From: Isurus oxyrinchus
Lineage: Eukaryota
Direction: 5' to 3'
Length of the DNA: 64,000 nucleotides
Assembly (NCBI GenBank): GCA_026770705.1
Contig: JANJGN010000020.1
Coordinates: 80,166,001 to 80,230,000 of the forward strand
Part shown: in pieces, positions 3,790 to 54,165 of the stretch
Position numbering within the stretch: the stretch's first letter is position 1
Layout: every line of letters begins with the position of its first letter
Position numbers and translations under genes: made by a program
Notes under the pieces: model-generated
What the model was told of the DNA's origin: nothing
The model's database searches: none
The model's input: the letters and a program-made list of their open reading frames with translations, nothing else

Positions 3790-4375
3790 GGCATTGCTGA
3801 GGTAGTGTACGTTTGGTTCCGAAATAATTTATCTCCATTTCATTCTTTCATGTTTATATTATTGTTTATTGTTTGACAATCAGACGCATTTTAACAGCCA
3901 CCAGAGCCTGCTGGTGGTTCACAAATGTAAGAATCAGACTGACCCAGAGATGGAAAACAGAAGCAATTCCATTATTTCCCTGTTCACTGTACGAGGCAGT
4001 TTTATAGTGTTGTGTCTGTTCTGTAACTAACAACTTAGTTGTTCATTGCCTCTGTTCATTGATTATACACCTCTGGCATTCATAACCTCTGAAACAGGTT
4101 AAATGTTGATCAGCTCTGAAGAAGTAATACAGACTCGAACCTTTAATTCTGTTTTCCTCTCTACAGATGCGCAAGTCTTGCTGAGTGTTTCCAGCAATTT
4201 CTGTTGTTATTTCAATCTTCCAGCATCCAAGTATTTTGCTTATATGTACGTACACGTACTTGAGTTCTTGTACAAACACGTGTTTTGGCAGCTACACAAA
4301 CTAAATTCAGGGAAGGATCGAAGAAGGTGGTTAAATCTGGTTCAACGGTTAGTTGGACATTGGTCAGAAAAATGA
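3790..4375 (+). pseudogene. GPR139-like GPCR pseudogene, copy A (TM5 to C-terminus)
   Basis: Broken frames read LTIRRILTATRA, NQTDPEMENRSNSIISLFTVRGSFIVL, YLSSCTNT and ATQTKFRE. Frameshifts plus a repeat insertion at about 4110-4240. Confidence 0.85.
4110..4240 (+). mobile_element. Penelope-derived short repeat inserted in GPCR copy A
   Basis: CTCTGAAGAAG...GACTCGAACC...CTCTACAGATGC...CTTGCTGAGTGTTTCCAGCAATTTCTG interrupts the TM6-TM7 region. Confidence 0.7.
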
Positions 4376-5087
4376 AAAACCAAATCGAAGTTTCCTCTCC
4401 TAACTAGAACTCACTTAATGTACCTTTTCTAATTTAGATTGACTACCTTTCTAATACGCAGTAAATAACATTCTCCTGTTTTGGAATTGAAAATGTTTCC
4501 TCAACTTCCTACCGTGCGGTGCCTGCAGCTTTCCCGCGATGAGTATTGTGGTTCCCTGTTAAAACAACACAATAGCAAAGAAGGTTTACAGCAAGCTGTT
4601 AGAATTCAGCTACAGGAATATCTCAGCCTTCGGGGTAAACGTGAACGTTTCACTTTCTGTACTCCTTTCTGGGTGGATCTTTGCTTATCTCGAAACTTTT
4701 CTCCTTGTCACTTTCAAACAATGAATTATTGCAATTGTGACGTGTATCTCTGCCTTGCATTCTGTATCTGACACATTTTGGAAAGCCTGTTTATTTTGCT
4801 CTTTTCCCCTGTCGCTGATCTCTCTGTGTAATAAAAGATTATTCGAAACGGGCTTGTGAGTGAACCAATGTCTGTTCCCATACCCAATGATTTGCTGAGC
4901 ACTGAATAATCTATGGATCTCAGCTTTCAACATGTTGAGCTCCCCCAACCCTCTGGGATAGAAAATTTCAAAGATTGACAAACATCGGAATGAAGAATTG
5001 TCTTCTCATCACTCATAATTCAAAGATCCATAAACTATAAGCTCATTTCACTCAATCTCTCCTCTGAACCCAGGAATGTTTCACGGG

Positions 5088-5850
5088 ATAAGACCATGGG
5101 ACGGAGGAACAGAAGTAGGCATTTCGGACAAACGAGTCTGCTCCTTCATTCAATGAGACAATGGCTAATTTGATTGTCTGCAACTCGGCATTCCTGCCTT
5201 GTCTCTCGATAATCCCTGATTTCATTAATGATTAAAAATCTCTCTATATCACCGTTGAATATAGTTAGGGACTCAGACACTATAGTCCTCTGCGGTAAAT
5301 AATTCCACCGATTCACTACCCTCTGAGAGAAGAAATTCCTCCTCCTCTGTTTTAAATGGGCATCTCCTTATTCTAGATTTCGTCTTGTGGTCCTTGAATC
5401 GCCGAGAATGCAAAAAGAAACTTTTCAGCACCTACGCTTTCAAGCCCCCTAAGAGTCATATATGTTTCAAGCCGATCAGTTCTCATTTTTCTAAACTCCA
5501 AAAGTATAGGCCAAACTTACTCAATCTCTCCTCACACGAAAATCCCTCCATACCATGGATCAATCTCGTGAACCTTCTCGGGACTGTTTTCAATTCCAGC
5601 ATATATTTTCTTCGAAAAGGGGAGCACAATTGCTCACAATATTCTAGGTGTGTACGAACTCGTGCCTTTTATTGTATTAGTAAGGCTTCCCTATTTTAAC
5701 ATTCTGTTCCATTTGAAATAGAGGCCAACATTCCATTTACCTTCCCTATTACCTGTTAATCTTGTATGCTGCTTTTTTTTTGGGATTCATGCACAAGGAC
5801 TCCGAAATCCCACTGTACTTCCGTCTTCTGCAACCTTTCTCCAGCATGCT
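5088..5850 (-). mobile_element. CR1-type LINE 3' fragment
   Basis: Starts with the reverse tail ATAAGACCAT...GAAGTAGGC, then antisense ORF2 C-terminal sequence (CTCTGAGAGAAGAAATTCCTCCTC, AACCTTCTCGGGACTG). Confidence 0.8.
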
Positions 5851-6560
5851 AGACTTTCAAGACGTTAATAACCTCGACAAACTTCAACACGATGAAGAAG
5901 GAGGTGAATTTGTGTACTTTGGGCGGACTAACATGGAAAGGCAGTACACTGTAAATGCGGGAATTTTGGAAAGTGTAGTTGGGCGGAAAGACAATGACCC
6001 CCATTTACACAAACATCATAATATAGTTTGAAAATCATATTGGTTATTCGGGGTTATAAATCTAGAAATAGTTTATAAAGCACTGGGATCGTGCTAGAAC
6101 TTTAAAACCTGACGCGTGGTCGTATAAAGGAGTCTTGTGGTTAATGTTGCACGTCACTCCTCAGCAAAGACATTAGAAAGGAGCTGAGAGCGCTTACTGA
6201 GAGGATTTCAATGAAGAAATAATTCAGTTATCAGCAGTTGAATGAGAAATTCTGGGTTGTTTTCCATCGAACAAAGCAAAAAGAAAATATCCTAAAACTG
6301 GTTTTGCAGATGATGTGAGGTTTGCAAAGAGTAAACAAGGGAAACAATCTATCTGTGTTAATGTAAAGAAGTAGGGGTCGTGAATTCAAAATCATTGACT
6401 AAAGAAATAGAGAAGACGGTAGCAGAGACATCAATTTCACTCAGGCTTTTTCGGATCTGGAACTCTCTACCTGAAAAGATGATAGATGGTAATGTCATGA
6501 AAAATTTTCAAAGGAAATTGGAAAGATATTTGAAGACGGGCATCTTGCAGAAAAACAACG
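5850..6560 (+). mobile_element. CR1-type LINE fragment
   Basis: ORF pieces YFGRTNMERQYTVN and RIWNSLPEKMID...FQRKLERYLK. Confidence 0.7.
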
Positions 6561-6674
6561 AACTACGACAATGCAGGAGAAACAAACACAAACAACATTC
6601 ACAGGTATAAGCACAAACACACGCAAATGGGCCTGCACAAACTACAAGACGCATATACAACTAGATGACAGCAA

Positions 6675-6925
6675 AACACTGTGAATGCTGGAAATCTGAA
6701 TTAAAAAATAGAAAGTACTGGAAAAACTCAGCTGGTGTAACAGCATCTGTGGAGTGAAAAAAAAACAAAGTTAATTTTTCGAGCTTTTATGACTCATCTT
6801 CAGAGCAGAAGAGTATTTCGAGTCGTTTTGACTCTTTAGTTCTGACGAAGTTAAATATGTGTTTTTCCTCTCCACAGATTCTATTAGACCAGCTAGGTTC
6901 ATTTCCAGCATTTCCTGTTTTGGTT
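6675..6925. repeat. Inverted pair of Penelope-derived terminal repeats
   Basis: Left arm CTGGAAAAACTCAGCTGG...CAGCATCTGTGGAG mirrors right arm CTCCACAGATTC...CCAGCTAGG...TTTCCAGCATT. Confidence 0.7.
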
Positions 6926-7148
6926 GTATATATAATTAGACATGGAGTAACTGAGAAAAATGTGGAGGGGACCAGAAGGAAGCCTTTAACTAAATTGGCT
7001 GAAATAATGGCAGAAATTTCGCAATTACATACAGATAAATAAGAAAGAGAGGTTATAACTGCTGTTGTTAGTCAGTGCAAGGTTTCATTTCACGGAAGGC
7101 ATATTTCATCTTGGTCAAATTTTGAAATTGAATGAGTAAATTGAGGCA

Positions 7149-7229
7149 GGCAGTAATGAGGATTCGAAACAGAATGGTGAGATCTCAGTCAGTTTCGATT
7201 CCATCGCCTTACCCACTCGGCTTTTCTAC
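7149..7229 (-). tRNA. tRNA-Ser pseudogene (anticodon reads CGA)
   Basis: Reverse complement GTAGAAAAGCCGAGTGGGTAAGGCGATGGAATCGAAA...GTTTCGAATCCT aligns to vertebrate tRNA-Ser GTAGTCGTGGCCGAGTGGTTAAGGCGATGGACT. Stems are broken. Confidence 0.7.
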
Positions 7230-8010: not shown

Positions 8011-9049
8011 TGGATTTGAACTCACAGTTGTGGGAAAATAGCTCCACTGCGTTGTGCATACCTAGGGAGAGCAAATTCTATGGTTTTAAGTACTTTGAAA
8101 ATATGTCGACTGGAGCGCAATGCCATATTCATGTCTGAATATGTCAAAATCCTGGCGACTTCTGCAACCAACCTCATGCCAAATGCAGTCTTTTCCATTG
8201 CTGTAGACTCAACCAGGGAGGTCAGTAGTGGCACCCTGCCATTTGGGCAGTCCAATATCAACATAGATTTTTCCAAAACAGGAGCCCAGGAGAGAGGACA
8301 CCCCATTTTCTGTGCAGAATGTTAACACAACACGGTGAAAAGTAGCTATACTGATAAACCCAACTTGATTACCATGGAGGACGTACGCTGCAGGCAGGCT
8401 CCGATGGTGTGATGGACTATGGGATCTCTCTGGTCAGTTGCCACCCACCTCACGTTGGGCAGCACTCGGCTACTGAGGAGATAACCCATCACAGTCCATC
8501 TGCTTCAAAGGGTTCTTCTACATTAGGGTCTCTCTTCAACAAGTGGATAGAAACCATTGCACCAGACAAGTAAATGAAATAAAATAAAATAAAGGAGATG
8601 TCAATTCTTCCAATGGCAAGCGGGAACTCAGGGCCATGTGCACAAATCTGACAGACTACATGGAGTTCGATAACACATGCTAGAATATCTATGATCGACA
8701 TGGAACTTGAATGGCTGAACTGAAACTTAGCATGCCAACAAGAGAGAGGCTCGCGGATGGAGGATCAGTGAAAGAAAAACATTACACGTCCATCTGGTAG
8801 TGGAAGTGTTCTGTGTTAACGTGTTATTGAGAAACTAGACTTTGCTGTAGGGAACTCACTACCAACGATGGTAGAACCTCCCTCAAATGCTGCAGAACAT
8901 GTTCGCTCGATTTGTTCTTGTGATGGAATTTGTCCTTTCAAAACCCCTTTTATTTTATTAAGACAGACCCAAAACAAAAATGTAAAGAGATTGGAAACTG
9001 ACTCTTTCAGTTTCTAAGGAAACAAAAACTGAAATTGAAATTTGGAATC

Positions 9050-9666
9050 CAAATTTCGGTGCAAATGCAAACTGCTACAGTGAATTTAAGAACAGAATTT
9101 CTGCTAAACTATTAGTGGAATATCACATTCTGACATGCCTATGAACATAAACTGATCATTATCAATGTACACTGGCGTTTACGCCCGAGCGTGGATTTAC
9201 TTTTCATTGCCTGCTGGGATAGCTGACTTTGGGTTCGGCGGTATCTTCTCTCCTGTACTTCCTTTTGTTTTTATATTGTTATTCAATGGTTTGATAATCA
9301 GACGCAATTTAGCAGGTGCCAGAGCCCGCTGGGATTTCCAGGGTCACAGCCGTCAGATTCAGAATGAATTAGAGGTGGAAAACCGAAGGAAATCCGCTAT
9401 TTTCCTGTTCATTATATCAGGCAGCTTTATAGCGTTGTGGTTGAGATTTGGTGTCTATTCTGTACCTAAAGACTGAGCCGTGCATTACCGACCTCATTAT
9501 ATATTTTCAGTATACATCGCCGCTCAAACATGTTACATGATGATGCATTTGAGTGCCTGTACAAGCACGTGTGTTCATGCAGCTACACACCCTCACTTCA
9601 GAGATGAACTGAAGAAGGTGGTTTAATCTGTTTGAACGGTTATTCGGACATTGGTTAGAAAAGTGA
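9050..9666 (+). pseudogene. GPR139-like GPCR pseudogene, copy B
   Basis: ORF 9165..9476 reads LPFVFILLFNGLIIRRNL...EVENRRKSAIFLFIISGSFIALWL. After a premature TGA it continues YRPHY...IAAQT...LSACTSTCVHAAT...FRDELKKVV. TM1-TM3 were not found. Confidence 0.88.
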
Positions 9667-10789
9667 AATCGCAAACGGAAGTTTCCTTTCCTAACTCGTG
9701 TTCAATTAATGCCCCTCTTCTAATTCATATTGACGGTCTTTTTGCTACGACATATCTAAATTGAAATCATTCCCTCAGCTTCCTGCTATGCGGTGTGCGC
9801 TGCTTTCCCGCTGTGAACATTGTGGTTACGTGTTAAAAAAGAAAACTCAACGACAAACTAGATTCATAGCAAACAGTCGGAATTCAGCTTCAGCAGCGTA
9901 TGAGGTCTCGAGGGCAATATGGTATGCTTACATTGTGATTCAGGTTCCTGAAAGTATCGGTGAAATGTATTGACACTTGTTTTCTGGAGGGTCGGCTTGG
10001 CGCATGGCCGAACAGATACGGCATTTAAGCCCCGTTTATCATACAACGGTATTAGAAGATTGATGAATTCAGCCGTATTGTGGTAGTAATATGCAGATAA
10101 AACCGGTCTAACAGAATTAAATCAATTTCACTTCACACTCATGAGCTGAAAGCCCTGCTCTTCCTCCGAGACATTTCCTGGCTCTTTATTAAAATAAATT
10201 TAAACCTATTTCTGAGTTTGTTGTTCACCAGCTTTAGAAGTTTCTTCAGTATCTAACAAATCAACATTACACAACTGATCTGGATAAATTATTTGTATTT
10301 CGAAGCTTAGTGTCAATTGATAAGCTGAAAGGCATTATTGAGTTAGCAACCTAATGGGAGAAGATAATCACTTCAATCATTGAGGCTGCAAGTAGCTTTT
10401 AAGTTATCAAACCGAAGCCCATGTACAATACCTTAACCAATTGGCCACAACAGCTCGACAAATGCAGCCGTGTTACATGTCTGCATGAAACAGCAGGCAT
10501 AATAATCAGTAGCGAACGTGGTGGAACTGCATGGAAGGAATCATTAAGTCATTCATCACCTTCGCGTCTTGAGCCGTTTTCCAATTTCCCAGCCTGTGTA
10601 GAAATCAGACTCGTGAATCAGAGAATCCTGGTGTTCAAAAGGAGGCCTGTCGGTCCATTCAGACTTTGCCAGCTCTGGGAAACGAACCTTTTCCACAATC
10701 CAACTTCCCCCCATCTCCATGTCAATTAGTTCTGTTGAAAACGCGATTGAATTTGGTTTCACACTCCTTTCAGTTGGAAAGGTAAAGTA

Positions 10790-11110
10790 ACACTGCAAAT
10801 ATGAAAATAAATCAGAAAATTTTTAGAACGTTCAGCGGGTCAGGGCGCAGCAGTGGACACAAACAGAGTGAACGGTTCAAGTTTTTGACGTTTCTTCAGA
10901 ACTAAAGAAAAATATAAATATAACAGGTCTTGAACCAATGGAGACAATGAAGGGGCAGGACGTAGAAAAGCCAATGTCTTATGGTGGAGGGAAGAAGAGA
11001 AAATGTGTCATGTTACAAAATACAAAGGAGAGTTATAACGTGTATTATAAATAAACAAAAGGAGTGTGCATATGTGGTTGTGAATTGTTGCATAACAGCT
11101 GTTCAAGTGC
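10790..11110 (-). mobile_element. Penelope-derived 3' terminal fragment
   Basis: CAGCGGGTCAGG...AAACAGAGTGAACGGTTCAAG...TTTCTTCAGAAC followed by a purine-rich UTR-like stretch; same family as 57795 and 58100. Confidence 0.55.
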
Positions 11111-14971: not shown

Positions 14972-15875
14972 TTAATTTTGAATTTTTTTTATCAATATCA
15001 GAATTATTGTCCTAGGAGATTTTACTATCTTCTTCAGCTCTCCCTGAATTTGGTTTGTGTTGCTGCATAAATAAACGTGTTTGTGCAGGAACTCAAATAC
15101 ATGAGTATTTTCCGGTTTGAGTGGCGATGAATGCAGGAGCTGCATAATCCGGTCGTACATGAAGGACCATACCACTGACTAACGAACAAACGACTGCCGT
15201 CAGCCACAATATTATAAAAGCTATCGATACAGTGATGAGTAATATAATCGATTTTCTTCGGTTCTGTATTTCTGGATCACTCTGATTCTCGCTACTGAGA
15301 CCTCGGAGCTCCTTACAAACTGGACTGGCTAATACAATCCGCCTGACTGTAAAGCAATTAAACAGTAATATCAACGTGAAAGGAATCGATATCACTAAAA
15401 TATTTTGTAGTCAAATAATTATTACACAAAAATGAGATGTATAAAATTCTTGGCTGGGTTTGCAACCCCGGTGAGAATTGTTACTTCTTCGCTCAGGTTC
15501 AAATGCAAATCAATTTGCTGTGTTCTCTAAACGTGTGAGGACACAGATTGTGGTTAGAACTGCAGCCGCAATTGTCACTGTATAATACCTTGTCATAAAC
15601 TTGTGGCTACTTGTAGATACGAACCGGTCAAATGTGAAGGAGACTGTAAACCATACCGATAAATACAGGTTGGTACTAACTGAGTACATAATGAACTTGC
15701 AGTTTGATGTACAATACATGATTATATGTGGAAAACGCAAACTCAGGCTTTTTTTACGAGAACATTGATGAGCATAACCAGTAAATCGGATATTGCCATG
15801 GACACCATGTAGAAAGAAATACATTTTGAAAGGCCACATTTTCCTCTGGATACATTACGATTCACATCAGGTTCG
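14972..15875 (-). pseudogene. GPR139-like GPCR pseudogene, copy C (complete exon 2 remnant)
   Basis: Acceptor TTTTTCCCACAG|CGAACCTG at 15876/15875, then SRGKCG, KCISFYMVSMAISDLLV, LSVWFTVSFTFDRFV, IPFTLILLFNCFTVRRIV, NQSDPEIQNRRKSIILL and RPDY. Multiple frameshifts. Confidence 0.9.

Positions 15876-27434: not shown

Positions 27435-27470
<36 letters not shown>
27435..27470. repeat. Poly-G tract (about 36 nt)
   Basis: Directly visible; a shorter G run lies at 2637-2653. Confidence 0.9.
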
Positions 27471-27471
<1 letters not shown>

Positions 27472-28079
27472 GGTAAGGGGGTGGGGGGAATATTTGTTTC
27501 TCGGGCAGTATTTCTCATTGTCACTTTCAACTAATGAAGAGATGGAATTGCGATGTGTATCTCTGTCCATCATTTTCTACCTGCCGCTTTTTGAATGTCT
27601 CCCTGTCTCTCTGATTCCCTCTCCTTGATCTTTCCATGTAATAAAAGAAATCTTCCAATCGGGATGAAAAATTGATCAATGGCCATTCCTATACCCTGTG
27701 ATCCCCTCTCTATTCGATAATCTATGCATCTCAGTTTTGAATATGTTGAGATCCTCCAAACCTCTGAGGGAGATAATTTCAAAGTTTATCAAACATTTGA
27801 AGAAGACATTTCTACTCATACTAAACGCCAGAGAGTATAGACTCATTTTACTCAATCTCTGCTCCAGATCCAGGAATGAATCTAGGAATCAAGCTATGAT
27901 TTCAACATGTGCAGTTGGAACTTTAGGAAATTCAAGATTTACTCAGCAAGTAGGGCAGCACTTTTGGGTTACCGGCCTGAAAGATTAATATTATTTCTCT
28001 CCAAGGATGATGTAGCGACTGCAGAGCGTCTGGAACTTTATATTTCTACTTCAGATTTCCGATATCTGCGGTTGATACG

Positions 28080-34195: not shown

Positions 34196-34200
34196 TCATT

Positions 34201-36043: not shown

Positions 36044-36429
36044 ATATGCTGAATGTTATCCTCCGAAATCAGCAGTTTGAACTGAATTTGACAATTTTCG
36101 GTGCGATTCTGCTCCGAGAACGACACGTGTCGAATTTAAATAAAGAGATATCGAGCCTGCAGGTACCTTCCATTTAAAATGTCACTCAGTGTTGTGCCTT
36201 ATTGCTGGTAGTGATGTGTTCCACTGAACTGCACTGTGGAGCAGTGATAGAATTATTCAGAACAAGTGACATGCACTGATTCTCTGACTCTGTTCCCTCT
36301 GCTGCTTCCTGTTTGATAATTGAGTGTCGATTCATGCGCTGGGATTGTTTCATTGTTCAAAAAGCTAGACACTGCTTAATCTGGGCAACTGTGATAATAG
36401 CGTAAGGTGAAAAAATCACTTTGATTCTT

Positions 36430-37168
36430 TAAATATCAGACACTGCTAATATTTGTGAACTTGGCATTCATTCTGTAAATGTCACTCTCTGGTACTGTTG
36501 TGAGAGTGGAATTGATTTAATTCAGTCACTGGTACATCTTGTGAGTTTGGGATTTATTCTGTAAATATTAACCTGTGGCACTATCCCTGGGTGTTGGACT
36601 GAGTCCGTAAATGTTACTATCTGCTGCTTACTGTGAGTGTAGGATAGATTCTATACATATGAGTCACTGGTACTATTTTTCATGTAGGATTGAATCGTTG
36701 AATCTGTAAGTATCAGTTTCGTGCACCCTCTCTGAGTGTGGGATTGAGTTGGTAAACATTGGCCTCTGGTAGTATCTGTGAATGTGAGATTGACAATGTA
36801 AATATCAGTCTCTGGTACGGTCTGTGAGTGTATGATTGAGTCTATAAATATCAGTCCCTGGTATTGCCTGTGAATGTAGGATTAATTTTCTAAATATCAG
36901 TCACTTGTCCAGTTTGTGAGTGTGGGGTTAATTCTGTAAAGATAAGTCGCTGGTACGAACTGTTTGTGTGGCATTGAGTCTACAAATATCAGCCTCTTAT
37001 ACGACCTGTGAATGTGGGTTCGATTAAGTAACTATCAGTCCCTGGACCTCTCTGTGAGTGTGGGTTGATTCTGTAAATGAAACCCTCTGGTACTAGCTGT
37101 GAATGTGCAATTTATTCTGTTTATGTCAGTCTTTGGTATTATCTGTGAGTGTGGCACTTATTATGTTA
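36430..37168. repeat. Degenerate 46-bp minisatellite, about 16 units
   Basis: Consensus approximately TAAATATCAGTCTCTGGTACTATCTGTGAGTGTGGGATTGATTCTG; AATATCAG recurs at 36801 and 36847. Confidence 0.9.
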
Positions 37169-37640
37169 ATAAGACAAGGCAAGCAAAAGAGCCATCTGCA
37201 GGTTTGCAGACATTCTGCGAGTTGTATTGATTTTATGATTTATCAACAAATTCACCACATTTAAACAGAGCAGCCACATTCCAGATTACAGAGGAGTAGA
37301 ACGGATGGGCATTCTGAAGTTAAAATTCAATTACTGAGTGATCAGTTAGATTGAATGTCCTCTCTGAAACAATATGAGATCAAGAGCTGGGAGTCATGAT
37401 ATTTGAAGAGACGTTCCTGTTGCTGTTTAACACAGTTTCAAATTAAGATTTGCTATTTAATACGTTCAGATTTTTCCAGCATATGAGGTCGGGCATCGCC
37501 ACATTAAATCTCATTGCTGCATCTAATCCGTCAGCAAGAAATTAACACAGGTGTCATAATCTGTTTGTTCAACATTTGAGAGAAATAAAAAACGTTGAAC
37601 AATTTTGCAAAGTGAATCCATCCGTGGAGATCCTGGAGGA

Positions 37641-37646: not shown

Positions 37647-37733
37647 TTAAATGCATTGGGGATGTATCACCTGAGGTTTTAACTCAGAGCCATTGCGTGC
37701 TGCGCCAATGAACAGAATCACTTCACACAGAAA

Positions 37734-37800
37734 ATGCATCAACCTATTCAATGGGCCTGGAACATATTCTATATGATCCTTGCTATAGTTGGTGTTCCTG
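37734..37800 (+). CDS. GPR139-like GPCR, exon 1
   Basis: AAAATG start encodes MHQPIQWAWNIFYMILAIVGVP (first half of TM1) and ends in phase 1 at the donor G|GTAAGT (37801). Confidence 0.88.
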
Positions 37801-37914
37801 GTAAGTATATAAAACCAAAGGTGTTGAGTGAATTTGGACGTGACCTGGTTTTTGCTATTGTTCTGCGAATGGTTATGTTACATTGGGTCGAATTTTTATG
37901 GTAATACGGGCACT

Positions 37915-38075
37915 CATTCTTTTCTTCATATTCACTCAGTACATATGTGCTTCGCTGCCAATTACAGCATTTAATACCTATCGCTAGTTGCCCTTCAGAA
38001 GCTGGTGGCGAACTGCCTTCATGAAACTCTGCAGTCCGTGAGGTGTAGGTACACAAACGGTGCAATTAGAATTGA
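37915..38075 (-). mobile_element. LINE/SINE tail within the GPCR intron
   Basis: AGTTGCCCTTCAGAAGCTGGTGGCGAACTGCCTTCATGAA...GTGTAGGTACAC matches the 22075 and 29450 tail. Confidence 0.65.
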
Positions 38076-39361
38076 GTTCCTGATTAAATAATTGGAGTAA
38101 TTAAATCTCCTGAAACCTGTGCAGCTATATCTAGTTGCATAAACTGTTTCTAGCTCACAGGCACTTTATATGATAAAGTGATTGCATTCAACACAATGTT
38201 GTGTCCTGTTGAATCAAACTTGAAAATGAGAAACTCCTGAGACGAATGTGTAACTGGCGGTATGTTTCAATGTCATATTGTATTGTATGTGCTCACTAAC
38301 TGTAAAGGAACACGAGACCCCAGAAAACGTGTATTACTGGGACTATTTGTTTCTTTAAAATTGAGCTGTGTGGGTTACTAACTGAGGTGCAACACACGAA
38401 GGCAGTGAGCATATATTGCCTGGAGTATCTGCCTTTTAAAAGTTGTGTTTAGTGTGGGAAACCATCATGCATTACTCCAAGTAAAGGTAATGACAGCAAT
38501 TCTATTACTGATTAACCTTCTTCCAACACATGGTCCAGATAATCTATGGGTCACGAGTGCATTGCTTTAATATATAATCTGTTTCAATATTATGAAAAAT
38601 AATCTGATATATATGTATAGTTAATACTCAAGTTACACATTTGGTAACAGAGAAATTCGTCCCAATTGGGTAACGTCAGTCTTCATGCTCAGCACGAGGC
38701 TCTTGAAATTCCACGTCATCCAAACTCCATCCCTGCGTCAAACATGTAAAACCTGGCTACTTCTCAAATAATTTTACATCAAGCACTCTATGTCGTAACA
38801 AATTCACATTCTCAACATTTTCGGAGTAAAGCATTTTCTCTTGAATATTTTAGTGGCTTTATATAGATTGTCACACCTCTGAGTTTTGGTATTATTGTGC
38901 AACTGCCCCAAAGACTCGAACTTTGTTTTGTAATGTCAATACGAGAACTATACACAGTATGCTAAGTGTGTTACACCAAGATTATATAAAATATAGCATT
39001 GACTCTTTTACTTAGGAGATATCCTAGTAGGGATGAACACCTGTGCATTGAAGCGATTTGCATCATCTCATTAAACTTCTTTCTCAATTTAAACCTTTCA
39101 TGCATCAATGGTCCTGGTACCACAATCATAGGGAGTGGCCCAAGGTGAATGCGGTTCTCTGCTCTGAGGGAGTGCATAGAGTCTAGGAAGAAGCCAGGAA
39201 ATGTATTGGTTGGAGGCGAGTAGAGGACATGATTGAGGTTGACCAATCTCTGATGCGATCCCAACCCACAAGGTTTTGATGCTTAATTCAATTCTTCATC
39301 CTCAGAAAAAGAGGATATATGTCAGCAATTTAAGGTCTATCTTCCCTCCTTTCTCTTACAG

Positions 39362-40257
39362 TTAATTTGGTGGCAATTGTGATCCTGTCCCGTGGAAGTT
39401 GTGGCCTCTCCACCAGTACCACTTGCTACTTGGTGGCAATGGCATCGGCGGATCTCATGGTCCTTATTAATGAAGTTATACTCAACCAAATCAGTAAATA
39501 TTTATTCCCATTAAATTTCATGGACATCACCCCTGTGTGTAGTATTCGTTATGTCCTTCCCCGTGCAGCTACAGACTGTTCTGTCTGGTTCACCGTTGCC
39601 TTCCCTTTTGAGCGATTTGTCGCCATTTGCTGCCGGAAGTTAAAATCTAAATATTGCAGCAGGAAAACTGCGTCTATTGTCCTAGCAACAACCGGCATTT
39701 TACTCTGTTTAAAAAATATTCCCATCTACTTTAGATTTAAAACGAGAAGGATCGTCCACAATGTATCATGGTTGTGCTCTCATAAGCCAAATTATTTAAC
39801 TGATGCTCGATGGATTAGATTTAGAAAGTTTGAAAAGATTTTAACCCCATTGATACCATTTGGTGTAATTCTGTTGCTCAACGCTCTGACCGTCAGACAC
39901 ATTTTAGTGTCCAGTCGAGTCCGTAAAGGCCTGAGGGGACAGAGTAAGGGAGAGAATCACAGTGATCTGGAGATGGAGAGCAGAAGGAGGTCTGTGATAA
40001 TACTCTTCGCTATATCGGGCAGCTTCATACTCCTGTGGTTGGTGTATATTTTATATTTCTTTGATGCTGCAAATGGCTTAGATAATTATTCTTTTTATAT
40101 CGTTGAAAACATTGCCTATATTCTACGGAATTTAAGTTGCTGCACAAACACAGTTATTTATGTGGCGACTCAGTCCAAGTTCAGAGAGCAGTTGAAGAGC
40201 ACTTTGAAATATACGGTTATATCAATTATTAAATTAAATAATAAGCAAAAAACTTGA
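39362..40257 (+). CDS. GPR139-like class A (rhodopsin-family) GPCR, exon 2; spliced product 320 aa
   Basis: Polypyrimidine tract and CAG acceptor end at 39361. Open frame NLVAIVILSRG, YLVAMASADL, SVWFTVAFPFERFVAIC, PFGVILLLNALTV, GSFILLW, NLSCCTNTVIY, SKFREQL. 67+896=963 nt, in frame. Confidence 0.95.
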
Positions 40258-40879: not shown

Positions 40880-41015
40880 NNNNNNNNNNNNNNNNNNNNN
40901 NNNNNNNNNNNNNNNNNNNNNNNNNNNNNNNNNNNNNNNNNNNNNNNNNNNNNNNNNNNNNNNNNNNNNNNNNNNNNNNNNNNNNNNNNNNNNNNNNNNN
41001 NNNNNNNNNNNNNNN
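40880..41015. other. Assembly gap (136 N)
   Basis: Run of n. Confidence 1.
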
Positions 41016-42230
41016 TCCTCCCGTCCGCCCACCACCTGGAACTAGACATTTGCACCATCACCTTTACTCACCTCTACAGCGTCGCCTGACTCCCTTCCCG
41101 TTTCAGCTCAGCAATAGCTGAAACCCTCACCCATTTCACTATTTCCTCAAACACGATTGTTCCAGTGCAATTATAGGAAGTCTACTACTGTCTATCCCAC
41201 ACCACCGTTCCTTATAAACTCGACATCAGCAAAACCTGTGATGAACTCACACTAGGTCCCGCAGTCCAATCTTCCTCTCTGCTCTCTGTCTGGTTTTCCG
41301 TCAGTCAAAACCTTGATTTCAAAAAGCTAAAAAATGCATTCAAATCTCTTCACACCAAAGCTCCTCCTTCTCTGCTTAAACTTAGCGAATTCTGCAAAAC
41401 TGTCAAGAGCAATAAGCTGCTCCAGTCCCTAAAACCGCCTCTCCTATCACTTTGTAACACGCCCAGCACCTATGAAACAATTCAAATTTGTACTCTCCTC
41501 CAGCCGCAATAACAATCCCTACCATGGAAACATACTGCTGCATTCGCTATAAGTCCGCTCATCTCTGCAAAGTACCGCATCCCTATAGTTCCAATCTTTT
41601 TAAAGCTGATTCAGCCATTACAACACTACATATCTCAGCAAACTGCTCCAGTACCCTCAACCCTCCCTATCTCTGAAACCTTCACCTGAGCATTCAACTC
41701 TCCCGATCTCTGTAACCTACTACAGCCTCTACAACACTGCATACCTCTGTACCCTCGCCCAGCAACTACAGCCTTTCCTATCTGTGCATCATTGTCCAGC
41801 CCCTAGAACCCTCACTATTGTTGTAACGTCCTAGAGGCCATGCAGCTTTCCCCACCTCTGTAATCTCCTTCGTTCCCGGCAACCCTACTTATCTCTGTAA
41901 CCTACTCCAGCCTCAGCAACTCACCTCATCTCTGTAACGTCTTCCAGCCCCCACAACTTTCCCTAAGTCTGTAAAATCCTCCAGCCCATGCTACTCTCCA
42001 TAATTCTCTAATAACCTCCTGCCACTCGAACCCTACAGGGTATCTCTACACTCCCATTATGGGCCTCTGTATTTTACCATTTTAAATTGCTCCACTTTTG
42101 GAGGCCATGACTTCAGCTGTCTGGCCGAAAGCTCTGGAATTATATCCATAAACCTCTCCGCCCCTTTCATTCTCTGGTAGAGGACGTGCCTTAGAATCAA
42201 TCTCTCCATCCTAATATTGACTTAGATTTG
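41016..42230 (+). mobile_element. L2 LINE 3' part containing an internal tandem expansion
   Basis: GCTGAAACCCTCACCCAT (AETL.H), GATTTCAAAA and TTCAAATCTCTTCAC; after the array GGAGGCCATGACTTCAGCTG...CTCTGGAAT. Homologous to 61590-62130. Confidence 0.7.
41360..42050. repeat. Degenerate 37-bp minisatellite, about 18 units
   Basis: Unit approximately CTCTGTAACCTCCTCCAGCCCCTACAACCCTCCCTAT; CTCTGTAA recurs at 41893 and 41930. Confidence 0.8.
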
Positions 42231-42329
42231 TGTAAAGATTTTGCTCTCCATCTCTTTTGTGAAGAGTCTTGGAAACTTTTACTATCAGAAAGACATTTAA
42301 TAATTATAGGCTGTTTTCAAATTATCCTG

Positions 42330-43110
42330 TCTGTGCCGTCTCTCTCTCTCTTTCCCTTTCTCTCTCTCTCTTCCTCTCTGAATATCTGTATCACTGCTTC
42401 TCAAAAACTTTCAAATTGCCTCTGTCCCTGTTTCTATCTCTGTCTCTTTCTCACTCTCTCTCTGTATCTCAATCTCTCCCTCGCTCTCTCTCTGAATTCC
42501 AATATCACTGTTTCTCGAACACTCTAACACTGTACCTTCCTCTCTCTCTGCTTCGCTATCTTTCTCTCCTTCTGTCGCTGGCAGCTTTGTCTCTTCTTGT
42601 CACTCCGCGTCCCTTTAATGCTCTTATTATTATCCCCCTCACTTTCTCCAGCCAGCCTTTGCTCCCTCTGTCTTTCACTGTCTGTACGATTATTTCAACC
42701 ACATTTTATTCTCATGCTGACACACTCTCTCTCGCTTTACATTTATTTTAGGCTGCCTCTTTTTCTTGCCTTTTTATCTTTTCTCTTGCTCAAAATCTCT
42801 CCTTCATTCTGGTTCTTATTCTCTGAATGCCTGTCTCTTCATTGAGACCCTTTCTCTCTCTCTCATATTTTTATCGGTCTCTTTGTTCCTAACACTCTCT
42901 ATCTGTCTCGATAATCCTCTCCTGTTACATTTTTCTCTCTTCAGTTATTTCCCTTACTATACCTTGAATATCTCATTATCCTGTTCTCGCTATCTTCCCA
43001 TCTCTTACATATTCCCTGTCCATCATTCTTGCTCCTTCCCTCCCTGCTCCAACATGCCTTTTCTATCTCCCTCTGTGCCTCGAGGGCTTTCGTGCACTAT
43101 CTCCGTGTCT
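42330..43110. repeat. CT-rich low-complexity region
   Basis: Degenerate (CT)n/(CTGT)n, producing spurious Leu/Ser ORFs. Confidence 0.85.
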
Positions 43111-44329
43111 CTGAAAGTTAAATTCTGTTCGAATCTTGTCAATAACATTGATTTGAAACTCGCTATCCAATAGGAAGGGGTCAACATGCAGCATAAAGAT
43201 GATCATCAATTCCCCGCCATGGTAGCAATAAAACATTGCAGTTTTATTTATCCAGTTCAGTTGCAGACAACCCAAATTAAACAAAATTGATCTAACTGAA
43301 ATGCACTGTACTCTGGCAGAATTGTTGAAATCATGGACTCACTTAGTAACTTCCAAAGTTTTCCTCGCACTTCCGGGAGTGAAATCTCGGCAGCACCTGC
43401 ATCTATTGACTTTCATTTTCAAGAAAATGCTGCTGAACCTGAAATAAATAAATGAATAAAAACGTGAGGATTACTTTTTTTTTCTCTGACCTATTTATCT
43501 CCTAAGAATTCTTCAAACTACCCGTACTTAACTGGTCTTGGCCTTATGAGTTCCATCTGCTGGGACGTTTCTACTGTGGATTTGTCTAGGTGATAATGCT
43601 CTTTCGCCTCTATTGGGGATCACTGAAACCATGCCAAACTCCCTCCACATCTCGAGCTATTTCCGTTTACCCTCCCATATGACATTAACCCATAAATTAT
43701 TAGCTGCTGCAACAACATTTCGGCCATGGCGGCTTCTGCTTCTATGATGTTCTCAGGATGGTTCTGTATTTTCCATTCTACAGTGTTGCACACTTTACAC
43801 ACGATCACCACTTGATGTCTGTCCAGATTACTACTATTACATCCCCTGTATACCCTAGCAGAGAGCCTTAACACCGTTACTGAATGCTTCCTCAACTGGG
43901 ATTAATCGTCCGACTCATTGTTCTGACTGGAGTTACAAGTCCTTATTTTCATCTCGGGCACTTCATTCTCCCAGTCCATAACCTTCACTGCTTGTCCATC
44001 ATTCTTGACATTAAATCAGTTCTTATATTCTACAGTACTTTTCCCTGCTCGTCCTATTATTTTTGCATCCCTCCAGTTATTCTATCCCCATGAAGGGCCT
44101 GATATTTTTGAACTGAATTTGTGCGGTTGGCTTTCAGACCAAATAGCCCTTGCCGGTTCATCACTTTCAGTCTTTCTCTTGGCATGAAATCCCTGATCTA
44201 TCACAGCTTGTTCCTCCTTAAAAGGAGGATTAGGGCCGATTAGGGACCAAAAAGACGTTTTATACTGATCGATGTTGTGGGCAAAGCTGAGATAGTTAAT
44301 TAATATTTTGAATATATATATTTTTTTAA

Positions 44330-46879: not shown

Positions 46880-49800
46880 TTAATCAGGAGAGGCAAACCG
46901 AATCTGGAGATCAATGAATGTGGGCAAAATATATGTAACACATGAATGACTGGTAAGTAGTGGGTAAGTTCTGGTGAGTATTTGCTACTTTTATCGCTTG
47001 CAGATTAAGCTTTCTTGTGCTATATAGTTTGCATATTCTACATAATGAGGATCAGGAAAGAAGGGCTCTAGAGTAATTGATAAAAAAGGTTTAATTTAAA
47101 AAGATAAGTTATGGCAGGAGAGCTCAAATCTGTGGTGTGCTCCACGTACTCCATGTGGGAAGCTGGGAACATTTCTAATGCCAGGGTCCAGCATGTGTCC
47201 CGGAAGTGTGCCGAACTGCAGCTCCTGGAAGCTGGGGTTTTTGAGCTAGAACGGCGGCTGGGGGCACCATGGAACATCTGTGAGTCTCAGAGCATCATGG
47301 ATAGCACCTTTAGAGAGGTCCAACCACAGCTGAAGGGACTTGAGGAAGGAAGGGAAATGTTGACCACGAGGACATCCAAGATAAAAAGGCAGGTCGTTCA
47401 GGAGTTGCCTGTGGTTCCACTTGCAAACGATATTCCATTGTGGAGGCTGATGAGGGCGCTGGTTCCCCCAGGGATTGTAGTCAGAGCCAGCTTCTGGCAC
47501 CACAAGCAGCGTCTCTGTAGAGGAGGGGAGGAAGAGACGAAGAGCAATAGTAATAGTCAGTTCAAAAGTCCGAGGAACAGATAGGCACTACTGTGGCCAT
47601 CAACGTGGCTCAAGGATAGTGTGTTATCTCCCTGATGCCAAGTTCCTACATGTCACTGAATGGCTGCAGGCCATTCTGAAGCGGGAGGGTTATACGCCAA
47701 AGATCATGGTACATGTTGGCAACAATGACATAGGTAGAAAGAGGGATGAGGTGTTGCATCAACAATTCATGGAGTTAGGCAGGGCCTCCTGGGTTGTAAC
47801 CTCTCAATTCCTTCCAGTGCCCGTGCTAGCAAACACAGAGATAGGTGGATAGCGAAGATGAGTACATGGCTTAAGAGTTGTTGCAGGAGGGAGGATTTTG
47901 AACCCTGGATGACTGGTGCTGCTTCTGGGGAATGTGGGACCTGTACAACTGTCTGGTCTACATCTAAACCAATGCGCGGCTCAAATCCTTTTGGAAGGAA
48001 TTGCTGCTGCTTGTGGGAGGAATTGAAATATTTTGGCAAGGTGAAGGGACACAGAATGTTAGCAGAATCGGGACCCTCATAATTTAGTAAAACAATAAAT
48101 TCAGAGGGAGTATACCTGCATTAAGTCTCAAGAGAGTAAGGCATGCCTAGATGTCATCTAGTTGAAGGCCAGCAGCATTAAAGGTAAAACAAATGTACTA
48201 AGGGTGAGGATTGACGTGTGGAATTATGATGTATTTACCTACACAGACAGGAGGCTGAGGGAGGGGTAGGATTGACGGCTCAAAATTCCGCCGATATAGA
48301 ATCTTCAGGCGAGCCAAGGGAGGTGGTAAATAGAAAGATGCATTGCAGTATTAGTTAAGGAGTCGGTTACTGCAGTACTGCATCGAATGTAGATTTGTGG
48401 ATAGTGGTTAAGAGTAAAAACGAGGCAGCTACATTGATAAGTGTTTATTATCGACCCCCAGATAGTCAGTGGGAAATTGAAAGGCAAATATGTGCACAAT
48501 TCGCGGAGATGTATAACAGTAGGGAAATTATATTAGTTGATTACAAGTTTCCCAAAAAATAATTGGAATACATATATTGTTAAGGACTTGACTGGAGTGG
48601 ATTTCTTGCAATATGTAGAGGGCTCAATATGTAGAGGATCCAACAAGGGAAGGCGCATTGCTGGAACAAGTTCTGGGCAATGAAGCCCGACAGGTGGCTG
48701 AGGTGGTGGTGGAGGATTATTTTAGTAATAGCGAACACAACATGGTACAATTTAAGCTTGATATGGACAAAGAAACAGACAAATTGCAAAAAATATTTTG
48801 GATTAGGTGGGAGTGGATTTTCGTAAAATAAGGCAGGATCTGGCAAAGTTGGATTGTGAACAGCTTCTTGTGAGGAAATCTACAGAGGTGAAGTGGAGGG
48901 CGTTCAAATAGGAAATGCGGAGGGTACAGGCTCAACATGTTCCCTCTCGGGTGATCGCAGGGAGTAACAAACCCAGAGAACCTTGTATGCACAGAGATAT
49001 TCAGGTTACAATGAGAAGGAAAATATTGGCTTTTCGTACTTACAAGGGGATCAAATGAGCGCAGGCATCGCTAGAGTACAACAATTGCAGGATGGAGCTT
49101 AAGAAACCAAGTAGGAGAGCATGCAGGGGATATGAGTATACTCTGGCTTGTAAAAGTAGGGAAAATCGCATGTAAAGGTATATCAATTGGAAGAGGATAA
49201 GCAGGGCAAGAGTAGACCAAGGGGCAATCTATTTGGGGGAGCCAAGGGTATTGGTACAGACTTGAATGAACGTTGGCAGGCTCAAAAGTGGACGTGTCTC
49301 CCTTCTCTTCCCTTCTCTCTCTCCTCCTTTGCTAAACTTTCCCTCTGGAGTTCACGTTATTGCATTTCCATTTCTGTTTGAAATACTCTTTCATTTTTGC
49401 TTTTTTCTCCAAATCAAGTACGTTGGTGAAAAAGACATATGAGCCACTTCCCTTTATCAATCAGCACTCATTTTAAAGTTGTACAGAACCTGGCTTAGGC
49501 CACAGCTCGAGTGCTGAGTGCTGTCCTGGCCGCCACATTATAGGAAGAATGTGATTGCGCTAAAGGTGGTGAAGAAGAGATTCACAGGCTGATGCTTGGG
49601 ATGAAACAGTTAAGTTATGAAGAAAGGTTGCATAGACTTGGGTTGTTTTTGTTGGAGCTCAGATGACTGAGGGACGACTGGATCGAGGTGTACAAGATCA
49701 TGAGGGGCATGAACAGGCTTGATAGGGAGCAGCTGTTCCCCTTAGTGAAGGGTCAGTCACGAGGGGACATACGTTGGAGGTGAGGGGCAGGATTTATCGG

Positions 49801-50060: not shown

Positions 50061-51367
50061 ATTCCCTTCGACTTGTTTGAACTCCACAACTGCATTACAT
50101 TACTCTTCTCCGGGTTAAAATCCATTTGGCACTTCTCCGCCCATCAATTTTTACCTTTCTGCCTCCTCACATAAAACACAGTCATTTTGTTACGTTGCCT
50201 GAAAGCTTCATGATGATTCGTATATGTATGTCCAAACAGTTAATAAGTAACACGAAAAGAAAAGAAACACGATTGTTACAAACTAATCTCCAAAGGAACG
50301 CTCATGCTGATGTTTTCAGGATTCCCTGTCGGTGCTCGGGCGCTCTTTTAAGAGTAAGTTCTCCACTCGCTCCGTCATGCAGCCTGATAACAGATGAGAA
50401 ATTCCCCATGTGTTTGCAGCAAAAGAGTGCAATGCAATTGAAAACTTTGCATTATAACTATGTGTTGTTGATTGGTGACACATAATCTCCTTGGCTCGGA
50501 TGCCGTTGCCTCCCCCTTCAAATTCAAACCAATCTCGGAGACTTAGTTACTAAGACACCAAGCAGAGGGTAAACTCAAGGAAACATAAGATTGAGCTCCC
50601 CCCACAATGTTGCCCTGTGGCCTGTGAAATGGCGCTGCTGTATGACTGTTACTCAGAAAAATACATCACAACGGATGTTAGCTTGTCATTTACCACTTTC
50701 CCAAATTGCGCTAAACACCTAGCGTAATTGTTTCAGGACCAGGCGGAAATATATTTCAGTGCCTGCCTTGCAGCTCCCCCAAAATATAGGGCCAAATTTA
50801 AATGTCAACAGGCAGTCGAAAAATTCCCGTTGAAGCCCCCGTCGTTAGTTTGCCCGACTGTGAGCTCCTTCCTTCTAATTCGCCATGAAATCCACACACT
50901 TCAATTGCAACATCCTTGAGATACGGCCACATTTCGACTTTAGTTTTACTTCAATGTTTGAAGTGCCTATACTCTTTGAATATAGCATCGTTCTGAAGGC
51001 AATTGTGAATGACAATCTTACACTGTTCATGCGCGATATGCTCACAACCCGTGAAAGGAATAGAAAAGTAGAGATTCCTAAGTTATCAAACTATTGATGA
51101 CGAAAACTTGTGTAGTATGAGGTTTGCTTTCTGCGGAATATTTTCAACATTGAGATGAAGGAGAGCGTATCTGTTGCTGAACAGCATTGTGAAGATTGGA
51201 TCATTCAGCAGCCCCTGGGAAAACATACCCTTACAGCTCACTGGTAACCTGAAACTTAGACTCATGAAATAGGAGGATTCCAGCCTGCGCGCGAGCAGCC
51301 AGCAAGGAAATATGCTGAATTCTCCACTCACTGCCTGTTGAATTTGAAAACCTCGTGACAAGACCCA

Positions 51368-51441
51368 GGGAGTTTAGTTCAGGTGGTTAGAGCGTGCTGC
51401 TGATAACCCCAACGTCGCGGTTTTGATCATCGTGCTAACCA
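51368..51441 (+). tRNA. tRNA-Ile pseudogene, anticodon reads GAT
   Basis: GGGAGTTTAGTTCAGGTGGTTAGAGCGTGCTGCTGATAACCCCAACGTCGCGGTTTTGATCATCGTGCTAACCA is collinear (74 nt) with Ile-AAT. Acceptor and T stems are broken. Confidence 0.8.
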
Positions 51442-53236
51442 ATCCCGTTTACCTCTTTTAGAGTAAGTATAAGCCACACCGTTCAGTTGTAATGCCTGCC
51501 CTGTCACATCGGTGAAGGATTTCCAATACGACCGCGTTCACCTGCGGCGTCGCCGATTGTGTCTGGTTTTCTTTCGTACGTCTTGAGTCTGGAAAATTTC
51601 TGCCTCCTTGATGAATTCGTCATTTGCTTCTGTGTCACAAATCTGTTGCCATCATGTCTACCATAAATTGCTGCTGTACTGCGGAACACGTGCAGGCGAG
51701 CAGTGACACCACTGTCTGCAGAGTCAATGCCCCTCGTTCACTGCAATTTTGCAGGGACATTTACTCAAGCCAATTTGCAACCGCCAGTGCAACCAACCAT
51801 TATAGCCGACTCATTTGCATTGAAACTATCAACAGTCTTCGACACGAATTAGTAACTCGCTTCCAAACAATTTCACGCAAACACGGTATCTGTCAGCAAA
51901 ACCTATTTGTTATCAAATTTCTTAACAGGCAGTCAGCTGCTGGGGAGGCCAAAAAGCATTTGCTCTTTCTTTCTGCCTGTTAGAAATGCTGCACAACGGA
52001 CTCCTAAGTCTTGTTCATTGCATTGTAAAACGGCCGGAACGGAACAAAATACCAAACGGCGGGACATTTAAATCATTGCTGAGCTATTTGGAAGCGACAC
52101 ATAAACTGCGCGGCTGAGAGTCCAACGCTTCACGTCTTATTCAGATAAATAAATCAATAACAAGGGCAGTAGATCTGCCAATTGTTCTGTCTTTTACTGC
52201 TTTCCCAATTTGCTCTAAACGCCTAAAGTCATTGATGAGAGCGAGGCGGAAATAGACGTCAGTCCCTGCCCTGGCAACTACCCCGAATTATAGCCCCACA
52301 GTTCTATTTCAACAGGTATTCGGTAATTTCTTGTTAAAGCCCTCCTCGTGACTTTGCGTGACTGCGAGCACCTTCCTTGTAATTCGCCAGGAAATGCACA
52401 GGCTTCAGTTGCAACATCCTTGAGATACAGCAGCATTTTGATACAGTTTTTACTTCACTGTTTGTAGTCGTTATACTCTTTATATTTAGCATCCTTCTGA
52501 AAGCGATTCTGAATGATCAACTTACACTGCTCATACGCGACTTGCCCACATTCCATGAAAGGCATTGAAAAAAGAGATGCCTGAGATATCAGCCTATTGA
52601 TGACTAGAATTTGTGCAGTTTGAGATTTGCCTTCGACAGAATATTTTCCACATATGGCAGAAGGAGAACATATCCTTTGCCAAAAAGCTTTGCATTCAGC
52701 AGCTCTGGGTCAATCATATCCTTACAGCTCGCTGATAACTTGAAGTTTTGACTGGGCAACTACATGATTTCCAACCTGTGCGGGATCAGTCAGCAAGGGA
52801 GAATGCTGAATTCTCCACTGACTGCTAGAGTGAATTTGAAAAGCATTTGATCCAAATGGCGACCAGTTAGCTCCTCGGTAACCTGAAGCTTTGCATTTAC
52901 AAATACAATAGTTTCAACGTTCCAACTGGTGCGTGGTCAGTCAGCAATGACTGAGTGTCGACGGCCCTTGGCTCATTCTTCGGTACCATTCCAGACACAG
53001 AATCCGAGTGACTCCCGCCCCCTGCTGCCCTGATATTGTCTCAAAGAAGTTTTCTGGAAGGATATTGAGCGTGCATTGTGTTCATGTTCTGAAAAAGTGT
53101 CCGCATCTATGATAGGAAAGAATCAAAAGAATCAAAGCACATCATAGTCAGTCGAAACACATCTGACCATTCCTTCTACATACTGTGATACTTATCTGGC
53201 TGTCGATTTTACTGATCTCGATTCCCTCTTTCTTAC

Positions 53237-54165
53237 GGAGAACGTATTAATAATCATGATTCGCGCCAGAAGTAACTGGGGCTTTCCAAATGTATCTCTG
53301 TCTATATGGTGTCAGGCAAAAACAGATCTACTTCATATATTAGAATTTCAAACTTTCAGCAAAGTCTAACACATTCATTCCTCTCCAACACTGTCATTGT
53401 TACGGCAATACCAAACTTTAAATTGAGCAGGCACTCGGTCATTTCGCACTGAAGCACCCGTCACAAGTTGGCAATGAAGTTGCTGCCTTACTTCTCATTT
53501 GCAATTTAGTTCTATTTCTAATCTTCAATTGCCACTGTCACTGTGTGCGATATATGGCCAGAATTTTAAAGCAAACTATGTCACTGGGAGAACTGCTACA
53601 GTGACCATAACTGCGGTCTCTGTGTTGATCTATTGGGAGAATATGCAATTTCGGTTGCCTAGGAACACAAATGTTCATTTATAAGCAACTGAATAAACTG
53701 CAAAAACGGGTGATCAACAAACTGATCATTAACAATGTTCACTCGGGATCCCGCCCTGGCGCGGATTTTCTTCCATCGTATTTCCGGGTTGCGGACTTTT
53801 CGGATGTATTTTGTCTCCATTTCTGAAGTTCCTTTTTATATTATTTAACTGCTTGACAATCAGACGCATTTTAACAGCTACCAGAGACCGCAGGAGACTC
53901 CGGGCGCACAACAGCAAGAAACAGAATGACACAGAGGTGGGAATCCGAATAAAACCCGTTATTTGCCTGTTCACTATATCAGGCAGTTTTATGATGTTGT
54001 GGTTGACAGCTGCTGTCTGTTCTGCAACGATCAGCTTAGCCGTTATTTACCGACCCGATTTTACATCCCTGGCATACATCGCCTCTCAAACTGTTTATAT
54101 GATGATTTACTTGAGTTCCTGTCCAAAAATTTGCTTTTATGTAACTGCACAATCTGTTACCAAGC
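53237..54165 (+). pseudogene. GPR139-like GPCR pseudogene, copy D
   Basis: SKCISVYMVS (TM2 region), RTATVTITAVSVLIY, and ORF 53811..54176 FNCLTIRRILTA...LFTISGSFMMLWLTA...YRPDF...YLSSC. Frameshifts; acceptor degraded. Confidence 0.88.

Follow-up and report, generated by a model that had tools for sequence, protein, structure and literature searches.

A likely sensory, apparently undescribed repertoire of GPR139-related receptors in cartilaginous fish

GPR139 and GPR142 are class A orphan G-protein-coupled receptors (GPCRs) that are activated by L-Trp and L-Phe, and GPR139 signals via Gq or Gi. Human and zebrafish GPR139 are 70% identical (PMC7318219). For the catshark, a survey covering only the OR, ORA, TAAR, TARL and V2R families lists 2 OR, 6 OR-like, 3 ORA, 3 TAAR, 2 TARL and 32 V2R genes (PMC11979771); a general paucity of GPCRs is described for the whale shark (PMC8455134), and a preprint on the Greenland shark suggests that sharks may use non-traditional olfactory mechanisms (10.1101/2025.02.19.638963). 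Here we examine a stretch of 64,000 nucleotides from Isurus oxyrinchus (contig JANJGN010000020.1, positions 80,166,001 to 80,230,000), called the window below, which holds five loci of a receptor family related to GPR139: one gene with an open frame, gene D, and four pseudogenes, A, B, C and E. With its clustered paralogues, four of five of them disabled in the window, this is a birth-and-death multigene repertoire. Judged from its sequences, the family is real, apparently undescribed and likely sensory, and an olfactory role is possible.

Size of the family and diversification of its pocket

Of 3232 candidate clusters formed at 90% identity, 2080 are matched at E ≤ 1e-3 by the protein that exon 2 of gene D encodes; all family counts are drawn from the annotations of other species and are not a census of Isurus oxyrinchus. 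The best 120 of these 2080 clusters are all elasmobranch and come from 12 species; 69 are from Heterodontus, 36 of these on one contig. On the strength of these best 120, most of the 2080 clusters are probably members of the family, because human GPR139 reaches just 37 bits against gene D and falls short of what that cluster search demands. At 50% identity, 109 clusters reach E ≤ 1e-30. All 19 representatives of the family clade that were looked up are chondrichthyan. One of them, from Callorhinchus milii, is nested inside the shark family in the maximum-likelihood (ML) tree described below, which makes it likely that the radiation predates the split between sharks and chimaeras. The same subfamilies recur in sharks, in rays and in a chimaera.

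Family genes are already present in NCBI annotations under a misleading GPR139 name: nearly all of the best 120 clusters are automatically named ‘probable’ or ‘putative G-protein coupled receptor 139’. Some members carry database names of the FMRFamide- or capa-receptor-like kind, and one member has PF10324. A Chiloscyllium member (P0178) clusters with a protein named RING-type domain-containing, which suggests that its gene model was fused with that of an adjacent TRIM/RING gene. No published account of the family was found in open PMC and bioRxiv at the level of titles and abstracts, with subscription journals outside the scope. GPR139 goes unmentioned in the available main texts of PMC11979771, PMC8455134, PMC13694853, PMC11589774, the Greenland shark preprint and a preprint on GPCR duplication, and it occurs 0 times in supplements of PMC7677710 (3 files), PMC10529500 (1), PMC13188829 (8) and PMC8455134 (12 of 24 files).

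Across 176 aligned family sequences, entropy peaks with helical periodicity at sites that face the ligand pocket and in extracellular loops (ECL) 2 and 3, while the intracellular face is nearly fixed. The conserved elements include CGLS in intracellular loop (ICL) 1, DRF, D-x-E-x-E-x-R-R-K-S in ICL3, N-T-x-x-Y and helix 8, and the cysteine pair joining C3.25 to ECL2 is conserved as well. Variable sites are 2.57, 2.61, 2.64-65, 3.28-29, 3.32-33, 3.36, 5.39-43, 6.51, 6.54-58, 7.35-36, 7.39 and 7.42-43, so that hypervariable pocket-facing positions lie in transmembrane helices (TM) 2, 3, 5, 6 and 7 as well as in ECL2. With the pocket defined as 26 standard class A positions, with TM4 omitted, mean entropy is 2.36 bits in the pocket, 1.50 in the rest of the extracellular half of the helices and 0.75 in their intracellular half (permutation p<1e-4, n=176).

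A control from amphibians reverses this order. Among 22 amphibian orthologue sequences, pairwise identity in the pocket, other extracellular and intracellular classes is 0.98/0.83/0.81, whereas among the 69 Heterodontus paralogues it is 0.45/0.72/0.88. Tree-based relative site rates for the same classes are 0.26/0.71/0.76 in the amphibian orthologues and 2.06/0.85/0.34 in the Heterodontus paralogues, and thus the pocket is the slowest class in the former and the fastest in the latter (p=2e-4 and 6e-5, in opposite directions). The inversion repeats with a second set of sites taken from a GPR139 review (p=0.026 and 0.017), for which pocket identity is 0.99 in the amphibian sequences versus 0.54 in Heterodontus. 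Distinct pocket strings number 66 in the 69 Heterodontus paralogues versus 5 in the 22 amphibian sequences, and 49 of the 69 pockets have a net negative charge. At the level of sequence, this is the pattern of a ligand-diversified repertoire and not of neutral decay, since turnover of the pocket on a fixed G-protein face fits neither neutral decay nor a fixed endogenous ligand. The earlier note on this DNA had proposed a lineage-specific receptor repertoire in cartilaginous fish. The cluster counts and the Heterodontus contig support a repertoire that is large, clustered and confined to this lineage, and the entropies, the identities and the rates measured against the amphibian control show that its diversification is focused on the pocket.

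Relation to GPR139 and to an amphibian orphan receptor

GPR139 is the best match among solved structures by sequence, with an E-value of 2.4e-8 for the single sequence and 4e-21 for the family profile, and among human proteins it scores 78 bits with that profile against 57 for the next. The best 60 PDB matches of the profile consist of GPR139 together with peptide, chemokine or orphan receptors, and searches by fold do not discriminate: peptide receptors are nearly tied in them, and GPR139 holds rank 14 (Foldseek) or rank 4 (VIA). Like GPR139, gene D has two exons (PMC7318219) and lacks the NPxxY proline in TM7. The two proteins are only 21-23% identical, however, and GPR139 is single-copy whereas the shark family is multi-copy and has lost P6.50 in most members.

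The pocket also differs. When positions are mapped by their distance from helix anchors in the alignment, gene D keeps only W6.48 (1/6) of the Trp/Phe pocket of GPR139 (E3.32, F3.33, H5x43, W6.48, R6.51 and N7x38). In the family W6.48 is retained by 172 of 176 sequences, but E3.32 by 0, F3.33 by 16, H5.42 by 19, R6.51 by 3 and N7.39 by 4 of the 176, which argues against plain sensing of Trp or Phe. With this loss and an identity of 21-23%, we rejected orthology of the five loci to GPR139. Descent from GPR139 or GPR142 themselves, the receptors with which the earlier note compared the loci, is not supported either: the sister of the family is a separate group.

This sister was identified in an ML tree of 89 sequences, in which 60 of the best 120 clusters and other near-identical rows were omitted and true GPR139 and GPR142 were not included. 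Here, 72 family sequences form one clade (SH-aLRT 77), and the nearest outside relative, in this tree and in FastTree, is an amphibian and sturgeon orphan receptor, the P0240 group (SH-aLRT 83; FastTree 0.93). Coelacanth and teleost proteins and then amphioxus proteins follow outside it. A search with an amphioxus protein toward true GPR139 and GPR142 returned only 11 amphioxus proteins.

The P0240 group comprises one cluster from each of 20 amphibian species, together with sturgeon, and it keeps F3.33, W6.48, K6.51 and N7.39, like GPR139. These proteins (P0240 and P0298-P0317), from salamanders, frogs, a caecilian and a sturgeon, have a near-invariant pocket and are mis-annotated as GPR139; no amniote or teleost protein is found among the 25 matches of the group. 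A second orphan relative in bony vertebrates, the P0242 group, has one cluster per species in the coelacanth and a teleost, and both kinds of orphan have in common with the shark family an ICL3 stretch, D-P-E-x-x-R-R-R-R-S. Judged by the description in PMC6504862, and not by an identifier, the P0242 group may be GPR210A/B of that paper. It is likely that the shark family arose by tandem birth and death from a GPR139-related orphan, and the single-copy amphibian sister offers a tractable route, through Xenopus, to the ancestral ligand.

Gene D and the four pseudogenes of the window

Gene D lies on the forward strand and encodes, in two exons and an open frame, a spliced product of 320 amino acids. 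Exon 1 (37734..37800, 67 nucleotides) extends from the initiating Met to the first half of TM1 and ends at a phase-1 GT donor; a matrix built from 71 family N-termini gives it as the sole strong match, with 39 bits against -5.6 for the next. The only coding intron (37801..39361, GT-AG) is followed, after a pyrimidine-AG acceptor, by exon 2 (39362..40257), which runs from the second half of TM1 to the stop and carries the 7tm_1 domain. The longest open reading frame of the window (39334-40257) is this second exon. Of the 120 best relatives, 59, counted by eye, begin 22-24 residues ahead of the Asn in TM1, which is also where our model of gene D begins.

The product is a class A (rhodopsin-like) GPCR. 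At E ≤ 0.001 its Pfam match is to 7tm_1 alone (62.8 bits, cut-off 30.5), and 7tm_1 is also the sole Pfam domain of P0173, P0240 and P0151 at E ≤ 0.01. Gene D has N1.50, D2.50, C3.25 with the ECL2 cysteine, D/E-R-Y/F, P5.50, W6.48 and Y7.53, all kept in 96-99% of the family, while P6.50, P7.50 and W4.50 are lost in gene D and in most members. An alignment-based AlphaFold2 model has a mean pLDDT (predicted local distance difference test) of 86.6, seven helices and a beta-hairpin in ECL2, and it fits class A receptors with VIA Z scores of 23-24 and a root-mean-square deviation of 3.0-3.4 over 253-267 residues. Around the gene, a degenerate 46-bp minisatellite (36421-37171) ends some 560 bp short of the start codon, and an assembly gap of 136 N (40880-41015) lies about 620 bp past the stop. 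Neither AATAAA nor ATTAAA occurs between the stop and 42500, and thus the poly(A) signal may be hidden in the gap or located farther downstream. Rfam gave 0 matches.

A tblastn search with the open frame of gene D recovers exactly five family loci in the window, and a family hidden Markov model (HMM) run over all six frames recovers the same five and no other above 8 bits, which agrees with the five seven-helix loci and single open frame first read from the letters. Disablement was scored by frameshift-aware alignment to P0173 from Heterodontus, with gene D as a control (0 stops, 0 frameshifts). Pseudogene A (3817..4404, +) retains only the 3' half, from TM5 to the C-terminus, and has four frameshifts, one stop and a 144-nucleotide insertion. 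Pseudogene B (9023..9704, +), which spans ICL2 to the C-terminus, has five stops and one frameshift; pseudogene C (14975..15853, -) covers the whole of exon 2 with two stops and three frameshifts; and pseudogene E (53241..54155, +), from TM1 to TM7, has seven frameshifts and ends at helix 8. The HMM E-values of their best pieces range from 8e-10 (A) to 5e-56 (C), so these are not chance matches. Exon 1 was not found for any of the four with a matrix that is biased to the subfamily of gene D.

The five loci are split, by sequence comparison, into two deep and old subfamilies. All four pseudogenes score best against the P0173 subfamily, not that of gene D, whose own clade is a distant one and also contains proteins of Scyliorhinus, Mustelus and Heterodontus that are up to 74% identical to it. 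Local DNA blocks are 63-80% identical among the pseudogenes and 59-61% identical to gene D. A recent duplication of gene D was rejected given the separate subfamilies and the local DNA identity of 59-80%, and an assembly artefact was rejected because the copies are just 59-80% alike. The 3' flank of B (10233..10811, +) is 67% identical to that of E (54278-54869), which either records a segmental duplication of old date or reflects a repeat that both flanks contain. In Heterodontus, P0173 is on a contig equal in length to that of six close relatives of gene D, and mixed-subfamily clusters are therefore likely an old arrangement.

Hints of transcription come from contigs of other sequencing runs. 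Run X1 is, by our guess, RNA from a related organism, and its contigs show no level, strand or start. One X1 contig spans 39016-40700 at 93% identity: it differs from the window at 119 of about 1,684 letters, is free of indels across the coding part and has a depth of 285 versus 3.6-5 for intron pieces of similar identity. It begins at a pyrimidine-AG site, preceded by 36 unmatched letters, and these hints fit an orthologue transcript that has a different 5' end; a possible 5' extension of exon 2 (39016..39361, +) is weakly suggested by that site. The loose 5' end has 0 matches in the window at ≤3 mismatches (best, 10 mismatches in 30), and no upstream exon was found there. Within the intron there is an in-frame ATG at 39319, followed in the window by a stop at 39331; X1 lists another letter in that stop codon, so an extended exon could yield a 312-amino-acid form in that organism. 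Exon 1 is uncovered in 4 of 4 runs, which carries no weight either way. Runs X4, X5 and X7 contain only short paralogue pieces, some of which cross the pyrimidine tract of the intron and are thus possibly DNA. In the little skate, about 1.5% of the cells of a dorsal root ganglion cluster, and of a spinal cluster, show two genes that carry the label gpr139 and may or may not belong to the family (PMC13694853).

Other features of the window are repetitive. A tandem duplication of 670 bp (50684-51350 and 52188-52842, 75% identity) lies just upstream of pseudogene E, and the insertion in pseudogene A (4117-4211) matches 57792-57887 at 74%, which makes it likely a dispersed repeat. Frames at 19-348, 28390-28755, 47108-47852 and 58616-58939 resemble pieces of the C-terminus of ORF2 and of the ORF1 esterase of CR1-type LINE elements, and a fragment at 1257-1640 (-) we take to resemble the N-terminus of a Penelope-like reverse transcriptase; none of these CR1-like and Penelope-like frames has a Pfam match. 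There is also a 54-nucleotide poly-G run (27435-27488) and a long pyrimidine-rich, low-complexity tract (42195-43173).

Candidate functions and comparison with known repertoires

We propose that tandem birth and death turned a GPR139-related orphan into a class A family of cartilaginous fish in which each paralogue would act as a ligand-gated switch with its own pocket and its own set of ligands. The ligands would likely be amines, short peptides or derivatives of amino acids, given that the pocket is net acidic in most Heterodontus paralogues, and all members would feed one shared G-protein pathway, Gq or Gi by analogy with GPR139. The set as a whole would read many water-soluble molecules combinatorially and would be expressed by sensory cells scattered over the olfactory rosette or over other exposed epithelia. 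That the family is a ligand-diverse repertoire of some kind seems highly probable from the alignments. That it serves external chemosensation, as a combinatorial repertoire for water-soluble molecules, is the reading that we favor, with a probability of roughly 0.45. Whether it amounts to an additional vertebrate olfactory receptor family, one that outnumbers the V2R genes of sharks and arose independently within the branch of peptide receptors related to GPR139, is doubtful. Published accounts credit sharks with very few olfactory GPCRs, and a family with at least 69 Heterodontus clusters and a diversified pocket is a direct candidate.

Several points weigh against external chemosensation or the evidence behind it. 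The FPR and MRGPR repertoires of immune cells and nociceptors are also variable in the pocket, and variability alone is no pointer to smell. Database gene models may be pseudogenic or partial, which would inflate the counts, and the support for monophyly of the family is moderate. The 26-site set was picked after the entropy table had been viewed, a bias that the GPR139-review set lessens and does not remove, and the contrast in rates is one of proteins, positive selection itself lying beyond it. Gene D itself may be weakened: 13 of the 133 conserved sites are changed in it, against a median of 4, although 7 of 120 relatives differ at as many and its own subclade spans 2-14. It also has Pro at 3.47, which 0 of 218 other aligned sequences carry and where X1 has the Thr codon of the family. 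Between X1 and the window, the eight differences listed for residues 24-70 comprise two silent and six amino-acid-changing ones, which is near neutral proportions, although they cluster at the top of TM2; this comparison covers 40 of 207 difference rows, with ten coding differences classified in all. Finally, the skate gpr139 signal in dorsal root ganglia has an adjusted p=1 and ‘little or no expression’ in situ, in a gene whose membership of the family is unconfirmed (PMC13694853).

Other functions would account for parts of the same evidence. If the family had an immune or sentinel function, with leukocytes, mast-like cells or nociceptors using it to detect microbial or host-damage peptides in the manner of FPR or MRGPR, it would have the same pocket-diverse, clustered and pseudogene-rich anatomy, and peptide receptors are its nearest neighbours by fold. 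Cartilaginous fish are reported to lack MAS1 and its relatives (PMC8455134), which leaves an MRGPR-type niche open. Given the non-significant skate signal in dorsal root ganglia, and the lack of a match in one small searchable supplement of a nurse-shark spleen study (a weak test), we regard this as unlikely; if true, the oldest immune system among jawed vertebrates would have a sensing arm that has gone unrecognised. A GPR139-like system of neuromodulation that has multiplied, with receptors for endogenous neuropeptides or amino acids in brain and gut, would explain why GPR139 is the best human match and why the amphibian sister retains F3.33, W6.48, K6.51 and N7.39, and a skate gene labelled gpr139, perhaps a true orthologue, marks a spinal cluster (PMC13694853). 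However, receptors for endogenous ligands keep their pockets, as the amphibian identity of 0.98 illustrates, whereas the shark paralogues stand at 0.45, and this system is improbable.

We give still less credence to a reproductive role, in sperm, gonad or social peptide signals, of the kind suggested for the FMRFamide-like receptors that have expanded in snails. It would suit the FMRFamide- or capa-receptor-like names of some members, the expanded Lymnaea FMRFamide-like receptors that are differentially expressed in reproductive glands (PMC11589774) and the testis enrichment of some shark OR and V2R genes (PMC11979771). Least probable of all is neutral passenger duplication, in which copies accumulate where repeats are abundant and then decay, none having a function of its own. 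Four dead loci out of five, the unusual substitutions of gene D and the near-neutral X1 comparison would agree with it, but decay would not spare a G-protein face, intracellular sites evolve six times more slowly than the pocket among the 69 Heterodontus paralogues, and subfamilies have been kept across sharks, rays and a chimaera.

A chemosensory repertoire would resemble several that are already known. The OR, TAAR, V1R/ORA, V2R and T2R families occur, like the shark family, as tandem clusters with many pseudogenes, and have a short N-terminus and a variable pocket on a fixed signalling face. The origin is separate from theirs, the shark proteins matching only Pfam 7tm_1, and membership of OR, TAAR, V1R and T2R was rejected, as there is no family-specific domain or best match. 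FPR and MRGPR, the nematode srw receptors and the FMRFamide-like receptors of molluscs are peptide-receptor-derived expansions with diversified pockets, and ESM Atlas neighbours of the shark family include Srw-bearing clusters, which serve as leads only. The nearest relative, the P0240 orphan, has one cluster per species and an invariant pocket, whereas the shark family is multi-copy with a variable one. The kind of system is known, and what appears to be new is its origin, in vertebrates, from the GPR139-related branch of receptors.

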